From the IMG/VR virus record IMGVR_UViG_2690316267_000014: a DNA stretch of 59,077 bases; one strand, written 5' to 3'. This document shows, one piece after another, positions 51,001 to 54,000 of the stretch. Every line of letters begins with the position of its first letter. Position 1 is the first letter of the stretch. The stretch comes from a virus (lineage: Duplodnaviria; Heunggongvirae; Uroviricota; Caudoviricetes). A program made the position numbers.

Positions 51001-54000
51001 TACACTATTAGAAAATCTGGCATGAAATCATCATTGAACCTAACAGAGATCGAGTATAAAGAAATATTGAAGTCACACCGCAATATAAATGGAATCGATA
51101 ATTCTGGTTTTACAACTGAAACAAATGAAGCTGTTTTGGCTGCACTATCTGCGGAGGTAAGGGGATGCTAACTCCATACAAAAGAGCTGATGTAGAATTC
51201 GAATGGATTCGTGATCTAGAAGAACAGGGTTGTTTTTCAAAAGTATATCTGGCTCATGACAGACACCTAGCTCATGACTTGGTGATTAAAGAAATAGAAA
51301 AAAAAGAAAACACTAACCACGACGACTACTTTAATGAAGCAAGGCTTCTCTATAAACATGCACATCCAAATATTGTGCAAGTTCAGTATGCTGCTCAATG
51401 TGAGAGCAATATCTATATAGCCATGCCATTTTATCATAATGGTTCGCTAAACCAATTAATGAAAAAAAATAATCTTACAAGCAGGGAGATAATACGGTAT
51501 TCTATTCAATTTTTAAGTGGACTTTATCATATACACTCAAAAGGTCTTATGCATTTTGATATAAAACCTAATAACATCATGATATCAAACAGAAATGAGG
51601 CCATGCTATCTGACTTTGGATTATCTCAGTTAGTCAATGAGGAATCGAGAGCTGCGCCTGAGTTTGGATATCATTTTCATGTGCCACCGGAATATTTTTC
51701 TTTATCAACAAATGATTATAATTTCACATATGACATATATCAGGCAGGATTAACCATATATAGAATGTGTGTTGGACATGATAATTTTGAAAGAGAAAGA
51801 TCTGCATTTAGCACGATTGAACAACTCAGAGAGTCGATAATTAATGGCTGCTATCCATTAAAAGAATATCCTCCCCATATACATAAAAAATTGATAACAA
51901 TAGTAAACAAATGCATTCATGTAGATCCAAATGAAAGATATCAATCAGTACTAGATGTACTAAACGATCTCTCAGCTATAAGTGATGGCGTTCTTGACTG
52001 GCGTCTACAGATGACGAAACCAACTAACGGCACATGCGAATGGCAAAAAAAGTCTGGGGACGCTATACTGTCTATAGTTTTTGACGCAGAAAATTCGTCT
52101 ACTACTGGTTTTCGTTTATACGATGATGGGCGGAAAAGGCGTGCTACGAACTTAACAATATCCTCAGGATGTACCCCTACAAAACTGTATAGGTTATTAA
52201 AGGATAACTAATCATGAAAAAGCGCGAGGAAGTAAGCAAGCTGCCTCGCAGACGTGATGCAGCATTAGCGGTTCCCTACAAAAAAGATGAGTTCATAAGC
52301 CCTTCTGATGACAAAAAATTTTCAAAGGCGAAAAATTTTACATCTACATCTCTAAAAGATAAATACTTTAAAATCTAGCCCGGCCTCAGCGCCGGGTTTT
52401 CTTTTCCTCTCGATCCCTCCACCTAAAAACACATAACCAATTGTATTTGTTGAAAAATAAATAGATACAACTCACTAAACATCGCAATTCAGATCTACCT
52501 CAAATCTCTTTATTTATCCTGTCGAATTCCTACAACAAAATAAAACACCATAAGAATCAATACGATATTTGAAAACCAAAAGAATTTATCATTTTGCTAT
52601 TGCCATCAATTTATCATTCCGATAAAGTTCACCCATCAGCAGGACGCTCTACTCACCAGGGCGGTGAATATACAACGATTCGAATATGAATCTACGGCGC
52701 TGACAAAGCGCAATAACCAAAGTGAACTTTGGGGTGTGGTGAAGGGTTCATGGACGGGAATATGTCGCACGTAAAGCGGCGAGGCCTGCAGGACTATTGC
52801 CGAATTGAAGTAGGCCGAAACAGGTCGAAATGGGTCTCCCTCCCACCACACCACCAAAGTTCATCAGGAGGTCTATATGACACGCAGAACTCAGTTCAAA
52901 GGCAATTCACGTTCTCGTCGTCGTGAGCGTTTAAAGGCAAAGGCATTAGCTAACGGCGTGCTGGCCCGCGAAGAAGCAATAAGTTCAGAAGTATTACACC
53001 GCCCTACTCTAAGCAGAGCGCAGATTCAGGCTAAAGGTACTCACGAAACGCCTGAGCGCATAGAAGACGCTAAGCCAATTAAGTTCATGGCACAGGACGT
53101 GATCTGGCAACAGAAAGAATACAGACGCAATCTGGAGCGAGCGGCCATTGTGTACGCGAATGAGTTTGGACATAAGCAACCAGAAACTGGTGTATGTCTT
53201 CCAAACGTAGCCATTTACGCGGCAGGCTACCGGAAATCCAAACAACTGACGGCGAGGTGACTTGTGTTGGTCGCCAGAAAATGAAATTAGGCAGCAAACC
53301 ACTTATTTGAGGTGAGATATGACAAAATCATGGAGCGTACCTTTTCCTGAATCAGAAACTGAACATGATGGAATGCCTGTTTTCTGGAGATTCCAGGCGA
53401 CAGTTGAAGAAGATGGGATAAAAATATTCGCACTTCAATATATAGCTTTTCATCAGACAGAGCATTATGCATGGTTGGTTCCTGCGCATTGGATTGTTAA
53501 TTTTAAACCAGCACCAAATCAGTGGTTACAGGAATGGAAACAAAGGAGAAATAGATATGCAATTAAGAAAGTAGCAAAAAATGCAGAAAGATCTTTTGCA
53601 TTCCCAACGAAGAAACTTGCCATTGAGAGTTTATTGCACCGGAAGAAATACCATTTAATGAGAATCAAACAAGATTTGGCTGTTGTATCAACTCTTGTTG
53701 ATGGGATGAAGAATATTGATACATCAATACCAGATATTGAATATAACTTTGGACACAACCAAGAAACAGAAAACTGGGTGTTTTATTAGTACGAATAAGC
53801 ACTGTGTATTCATTCCAACGAGTGAATACACGGAGCAATGTCGCTCGTAACCAAACAGGAGCCGACTTGTTCTGATTATTGGAAATCTTCTTTGCCCTCC
53901 AATGTGAGGGCTTTTTTATATGCATACCAATAACGCTTCACTAGAGGCGTTTTCGTTATGTGTAAATAAATAAGGAGCACACCATGCAATATGCCATTGC

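Follow-up and report, generated by a model that had tools for sequence, protein, structure and literature searches.

The window analysed here, a 59,077-nucleotide stretch of DNA from a virus of the class Caudoviricetes (IMG/VR record IMGVR_UViG_2690316267_000014), carries in its pL operon, between the antiterminator gene N and cIII, an open reading frame (ORF) of 156 amino acids (aa) that is almost certainly a real gene and the orthologue of HK97 gp45 and 933W L0079. The gene is already known, as GenBank has listed it from the time of the HK97 and 933W genome sequences onwards, and the window adds nothing to it beyond the public records. An initial annotation of this stretch had described the gene as an uncharacterised insertion followed by an inverted repeat and a terminator, which it implied to go with the gene. 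The main value of the analysis is corrective, as the hairpin and the terminator very probably represent the known PreS/tL2a module, which is independent of the gene in front of it.

The 156-aa gene occupies positions 53319-53789 of the + strand (156 codons, ATG start, TAG stop in the ORF list) and is preceded by the Shine-Dalgarno sequence GAGGTGA at 53309-53315, which leaves a gap of 3 nt to the ATG. The coordinates, the good initiation signal and the AT-rich composition given in the initial annotation were all borne out, the GC content being 36.1% (0.361 vs. 0.497 in N and 0.498 in the window as a whole). When the 471 nt of the ORF were shuffled 2000 times, the frame was never kept open. The order of the pL operon on the + strand is N, the 156-aa gene, and cIII, followed by kil, gam, bet, and exo, with N at 52877-53260 and the cIII ORF at 53984-54124 (+), so that the location between these two genes was also correctly recognised. 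The N protein is of the 933W/H-19B type (127 aa, + strand, ORF list) and its counterparts are named N in HK97, 933W, and phi24B. The spacer between N and the 156-aa gene (53261-53318, +) holds, in addition to the Shine-Dalgarno sequence, a relic of an N gene of the phage-21/lambda type, derived from its 3' end. An ORF in another frame (53194-53310) ends in ...VTCVGRQKMKLGSKPLI*, the C-terminus of this type of N, and the DNA matching the relic at 53194-53318 is the genuine 3' end of a 99-aa N in other prophages. For this reason, the present 933W-type N looks like a replacement for an earlier N, with the 3' end of the latter and gp45 retained together as a downstream block.

At the DNA level, the gene is 97-98% identical to its copies in HK97, 933W, phi24B, Min27, Stx2 phage 86, and dozens of Stx1/Stx2 phages, and the protein is 98-99% identical to, and of equal length as, HK97 gp45, 933W L0079, phi24B vb_24B_11c, and Stx2-phage-86 orf57. 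All four are annotated as "hypothetical" in the corresponding phage records, each directly after N. The protein also matched the profile of PHROG 1636 (function unknown) over residues 1-156 of 156, with an E value of 3e-111. The earlier statement that the sequence gives no family assignment thus holds for characterised families, and fails in view of the full-length PHROG match and the nearly identical HK97 and 933W proteins. The description of the gene as uncharacterised stands. Pfam, NCBIfam, and PADLOC returned no match for the protein (0 PADLOC families at E<=1), and the source names in the clusters and in a profile search of a 5.8-billion-protein set were all "hypothetical", with "prophage protein" used elsewhere. 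A full-text literature search for HK97 gp45, L0079, vb_24B_11c, and phrog_1636 found no study of the gene. Of 5426 complete E. coli genomes, 598 (11%) carry the gene, with up to 4 copies per genome, and all copies returned by a search for related loci from the close alignment were at least 98% identical. Among 84 intact copies, representing 30 alleles, 21 synonymous changes were counted vs. 5 non-synonymous ones. The resulting pN/pS of 0.06 shows strong constraint and hence a functional gene. The only point in favour of a functionless ORF, arisen by chance or in decay, is that no function has ever been assigned to it; together with the shuffling result and a confident fold common to the family, this constraint already refutes that explanation, to which we give practically no weight.

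Beyond these close homologues, a profile search of 1.84 billion representative proteins detected 91 relatives at E<1e-3, most of them of 130-160 aa and with around 20-25% identity. Pfam found nothing in any of the 85 family members, and the relatives are all unnamed. These remote relatives are spread over many lytic and temperate phages of Proteobacteria. Structure prediction, which had been proposed as a check, gave with AlphaFold a mean predicted local distance difference test (pLDDT) score of 56 from 20 close homologues, and of 95.4, with a predicted template modelling (pTM) score of 0.82, from 85 sequences that included the remote members. The model confidently predicts an alpha/beta fold with a long beta-hairpin sheet, short helices, and one helix of 33 residues; its elements are strands 19-30, 33-46, and 50-55, two short helices, strand 83-86, helix 98-130, and a C-terminal tail. 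No solved structure was found as a neighbour of this model, and profile searches of PDB sequences with the family returned only noise (E > 0.3). A Foldseek search of the BFVD structure set gave 12 significant matches (E 2e-7 to 1e-3, TM scores up to 0.68-0.76), every one uncharacterised, from phages of Erwinia (phiEa2809), Achromobacter (phiAxp-3), Delftia (RG-2014), Rhizobium, Sinorhizobium, Tenacibaculum, and Cellulophaga. These proteins share the predicted fold, but their sequence identity is only 12-23%, and the phages are of different types, including some large myoviruses and others that we take to be N4-like.

The protein has a mass of 18.6 kDa, a pI of 8.8, and a maximum Kyte-Doolittle value (window of 19) of 0.71, which points to a soluble protein with no membrane segment. 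Its charge is unevenly distributed, the segment 61-118 having a net charge of +13 while the N- and C-terminal thirds are acidic. Positions conserved across the family are R24, G33, E/Q46-T47, K83/K84, K87, K98, A101, R108/K109, and F155, of which R24, K83/K84, K87, K98, and R108/K109 form a conserved basic face. Several candidate identities were rejected. Homology to P22 gp17 obtained an hhalign probability of 2.2%, and the AP2 domain and the arm-type DNA-binding domain of lambda Int were likewise rejected by hhalign, with manually entered AP2 and Int query sequences. Membership of the lambda/P22 Ral family was discarded since there was no Pfam match and the PHROG matches were only to families of unknown function; Ral of lambda is 66 aa long vs. 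156 aa here. A Sie-type membrane exclusion protein (SieA, SieB, HK97 gp15) was also set aside, as the 156-aa protein has no transmembrane segment and its gene no promoter-like site of its own.

Comparison with lambda defines the slot in which the gene lies. The window is 96% identical at 53799-53922 to lambda 34045-33920, which lies between ral and ea10, and the match goes on at 53922-54200 with lambda 33522-33247. As lambda homology resumes 10 nt past the stop of the ORF, just downstream of ral, the 156-aa ORF stands in for the lambda block sieB-orf28-ral. The initial annotation had placed it in the slot of ral, sieB, and ea10, which is correct for the first two genes; ea10 is lacking independently of this, through a single junction at 53922 just past tL2a (lambda 33920 to 33522) at which ea10/ssb is missing relative to lambda and 933W. 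This ea10-less junction is common to HK97 and Stx2 phage 86, in which cIII lies directly behind the block as in the window, whereas in 933W and phi24B ea10/ssb intervenes before cIII. All four phages share with the window the hairpin, PreS, and terminator downstream of the gene.

The perfect 9-bp inverted repeat behind the gene consists of GTGTATTCA (53804-53812) and TGAATACAC (53823-53831). Its perfection and its span of 28 nt were as first described, while its true site (53804-53831) lies 11 nt upstream of the 53815-53842 originally given. It forms the core of a conserved hairpin at 53799-53836 (+), with 14 bp as RNA and a predicted energy of -20.2 kcal/mol, which begins 10 nt past the ORF stop and is 100% conserved in sequence in lambda, HK97, 933W, and Bas106. 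Its core stem ends 2 nt ahead of the 5' end of a homologue of the PreS/LPR1 small RNA (sRNA) at 53833-53920 (+), which is identical in 83 of 88 nt to the cloned lambda LPR1 (34011-33924, limits taken from the cloning primers of the PreS authors; bioRxiv 10.1101/2024.10.31.621285). In lambda, the Hfq-dependent sRNA LPR1/PreS has a length of about 88 nt, is shortened by processing to about 68 nt, and has tL2a as its 3' end; it is made in lytic growth only, raises dnaN translation, and aids phage DNA replication (bioRxiv 10.1101/2024.10.31.621285). In the window, the 3' end of PreS is likewise formed by the intrinsic terminator tL2a at 53894-53917 (+), with the stem-loop GCCCTC-CAATGT-GAGGGC (53894-53911) followed by T6. 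The terminator before cIII reported initially was thus confirmed. Lambda PreS has the same predicted two-hairpin shape and U-tract 3' end, and the copy in the window differs from it by single substitutions in the 5' hairpin and in the terminator loop, and by a U-tract directly behind the stem. In the region that pairs with dnaN, it retains unaltered both the CTG that was changed in LPR1-M1 to test this pairing and the flanks of this triplet (CTTGTTCTGATTATTGG). The spacer at 53786-53960 folds far better than chance (z = -5.6, with 0 of 200 shuffles as stable). From this sequence agreement, the segment 53833-53920 with its terminator is very likely the PreS/tL2a module, and the implied link of the gene to the repeat and the terminator did not survive, as these elements are a separate lambdoid module, 96% identical to that of lambda, which lacks the gene.

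Two further observations also separate the RNA module from the gene. In Bas106, some 535 bp with two other ORFs separate the 156-aa gene from the hairpin-PreS block downstream of it. In addition, no PreS occurs in the vicinity of relatives of the protein that share 43-62% identity with it, so that the RNA module does not depend on the gene. The hairpin itself might set the 5' end of the sRNA or stabilise the upstream mRNA, and no discussion of it was found in the PreS preprint (bioRxiv 10.1101/2024.10.31.621285). A 20-nt match to the PreS 5' end (GAGCAATGTCGCTCGTAACC, 95%) was also observed in the PL operon of P22 (L016, 6822-6841), between gene 17 and orf87, and may be a remnant or a divergent PreS-like element. 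Downstream of tL2a, the window contains a second, weaker terminator-like hairpin at 53932-53957 (+; AACGCTTCACTAGAGGCGTT followed by TTCGTT), in a segment homologous to lambda 33522-33490, a hairpin which we presume may be lambda tL2b. It is followed by the cIII thermoregulator RNA at 53971-54029 (+; Rfam RF01804, 88.5 bits, E 1e-21), which overlaps the cIII start. The cIII protein here has 46 aa vs. 54 aa in lambda-like copies of other prophages.

The 156-aa gene is a mobile accessory cassette. Across 80 prophage loci and Bas106, it was found behind at least four kinds of N (933W-type, a 99-aa phage-21-like type, a 112-aa type, a 114-aa type, and others), the N gene upstream of it in Bas106 differing from the 933W type. 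On its 3' side, the genes across the 80 prophage loci include ea10, cIII, a P22 gene 17 homologue, and others. In one locus (L050) and two similar E. coli prophage loci, the gene and PreS are followed by a homologue of P22 gene 17 (103 aa), an order from which it follows that the two genes coexist. In other lambdoid prophages, the interval from N to kil harbours a relative with 43% identity; in one lambdoid prophage with such a relative (L012), a gene with a BstA_C domain (abortive infection) was observed at 686-1609, upstream of N (2302-2574). The neighbourhoods of 12 remote members were also inspected. Some adjoin genes for a ParB-like protein and RusA, another adjoins a primase and a ParB-like protein, and some lie near DNA methyltransferase genes; one is located near genes for DNA polymerase A, dCTP deaminase, an exonuclease, a PD-(D/E)XK protein, and an SNF2 helicase, and one near RecT, a Cro-like helix-turn-helix gene, and Rha. 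No constant partner gene was found across these 12 neighbourhoods, which share only a general early or DNA-metabolism setting. Relatives also occur in the strictly lytic phages Bas81 and NX263 and in N4-like phages. A plasmid search gave matches solely in phage-like, non-mobilizable records and no conjugative plasmid with the gene, which argues against a tie to conjugative leading regions.

Regarding expression, a consensus scan identified a candidate pL promoter (TTGCCA-17-TAAAGT) at 52600-52628 on the + strand, tentatively assigned, from which N, the 156-aa gene, and PreS would be transcribed. Identity to the 933W N leader begins a short distance downstream of this site, at position 52636, and the window is 98.8% identical to 933W over 52636-53919, with a nutL homologue at 52645-52711 (+), the position matching the nutL annotated in 933W. 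The scan gave no promoter-like site between the candidate pL and the 156-aa ORF, and no strong intrinsic terminator was found between N and the ORF, so that the gene appears to be co-transcribed with N from pL. It would then be carried on the immediate-early transcript, which would stop at tL2a until N antiterminates, and the protein would be made within minutes after infection or induction and be silent in the lysogen. From this transcription context, immediate-early expression is probable.

With respect to function, we tentatively favour a nucleic-acid-directed accessory role, in which the conserved basic face would bind nucleic acid or an enzyme that handles it, and the protein would assist, without being essential, in the early replication or recombination of phage DNA, or would protect this DNA. 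This role is placed first on account of the conserved basic face, the DNA-metabolism neighbourhoods of the remote members, and the breadth of the family combined with its constraint. The role itself is a guess, possible rather than probable; the explanation as a whole, in a judgement weighted to its mechanistic part, comes a little closer to an even chance while staying below it. A bolder version is also conceivable, though somewhat unlikely, in which the gp45/L0079 family would be a structurally new immediate-early class whose basic face seizes or shields one of the central machines with which the host handles nucleic acids, for example a replication or repair complex or a nuclease complex. 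Several considerations weigh against the favoured role. Nucleic-acid binding is hypothetical, and an acidic protein would be an equally plausible partner of the basic patch; the remote members lie in heterogeneous neighbourhoods, with no partner gene present in all contexts; and Rho-dependent termination could take place between N and the ORF and upset the predicted immediate-early timing. In addition, counter-defence would likewise be compatible with the patchy distribution, the low GC content, and the position in a slot also used by ral and P22 gene 17.

A counter-defence protein would be made at the very start of infection and would bind and block an immunity protein of the host or of a resident prophage, in parallel to Ral, which alleviates restriction, and P22 gp17, which allows escape from a resident prophage. 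Both of these are encoded by dispensable early pL-operon genes and, like the 156-aa gene, are located in the accessory slot between N/24 and cIII/c3, which is filled by ral and sieB in lambda and, in P22, by ral, sieB/esc, and gene 17. The GC content of 0.36 and the mosaic junctions mark an exchangeable accessory gene, which is carried by just 11% of E. coli genomes and is missing from lambda, and the predicted immediate-early timing is compatible with this role, as are the DNA methyltransferase or ParB-like genes near relatives in several lytic phages. However, the 156-aa protein shows no similarity, in sequence or profile, to Ral or gp17 or to any catalogued anti-defence protein, and it co-occurs with Ral and gp17 homologues instead of replacing them. 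Its absence from conjugative plasmids, the breadth of the family, and the strong purifying selection also speak against counter-defence, as counter-defence genes tend to be narrower in distribution and faster-evolving. Furthermore, in a 2025 survey of enterohaemorrhagic E. coli (EHEC) phages, which include phages carrying the gene, DefenseFinder reports only methyltransferases, Ral, and Gam (PMC12502783); the gene was apparently not flagged in them, which is our reading and not a statement of that survey. On balance, counter-defence ranks second among the explanations and is rather unlikely.

Two other explanations are much less probable. As a low-GC prophage insert with exclusion functions nearby (stk here, sieB in lambda), the gene could be a moron, that is, a superinfection-exclusion or defence gene expressed from the prophage and shielding the lysogen from other phages; Stk has a role in exclusion. 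However, the ORF lies directly behind N with no promoter-like site from the candidate pL onwards and should be silent in the lysogen, and the protein has no membrane segment, unlike SieA, SieB, and HK97 gp15. PADLOC gave no match, and relatives are present in the strictly lytic Bas81 and NX263 and in N4-like phages, all of which makes a moron improbable. It is slightly more improbable still that the protein governs the processing of the sRNA or termination at tL2a by binding to the hairpin or to PreS. The close spacing, with the hairpin 10 nt past the stop and its core stem ending 2 nt before the PreS 5' end, and the basic face of the protein would be in line with such an RNA-directed factor. 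Lambda, however, has an identical hairpin plus PreS without the gene, which makes a role dedicated to PreS unlikely, and both the two ORFs intervening in Bas106 and the 43-62% identical relatives with no nearby PreS point in the same direction. The nucleic-acid-directed accessory role is thus retained as the favoured, still tentative, reading.

As for the rest of the window, the immunity region (49536-52635) is hybrid relative to 933W. The segment 49813-52453, which comprises the C-terminal part of cI, L0084, L0083, stk, and L0081, is 98.6% identical to 933W, while this identity does not extend to the oL/pL region (52454-52635) or to the initial ~280 nt of cI. The stk gene and its upstream L0083-like neighbour are low in GC (0.35), like the 156-aa gene. 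A Q-like ORF is found at 39579-40112 (-) and an esterase-like ORF of 636 aa at 36903-38813 (-), and the gap of ~765 nt between them contains no stx ORFs. No tRNA genes were detected across the whole window, which looks like a stx-negative 933W-like prophage.

The gene is present in the classic Shiga-toxin phages 933W, phi24B, Min27, phage 86, and BP-4795, in addition to HK97; roughly one in nine complete E. coli genomes have it, and its product is probably among the earliest proteins made upon induction. Whereas lambda PreS sits in the 3' region of ral, PreS in the window sits behind the 156-aa gene, which suggests that here, in HK97, and in the Stx phages this sRNA is the 3' part of the transcript of the 156-aa gene and not of that of ral. 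A confident model with no solved relative, combined with a phage-wide family, makes the 156-aa gene a reasonable experimental target. If its basic face does act on a central host machine, gp45/L0079 would represent an undescribed mechanism of host takeover or counter-defence.

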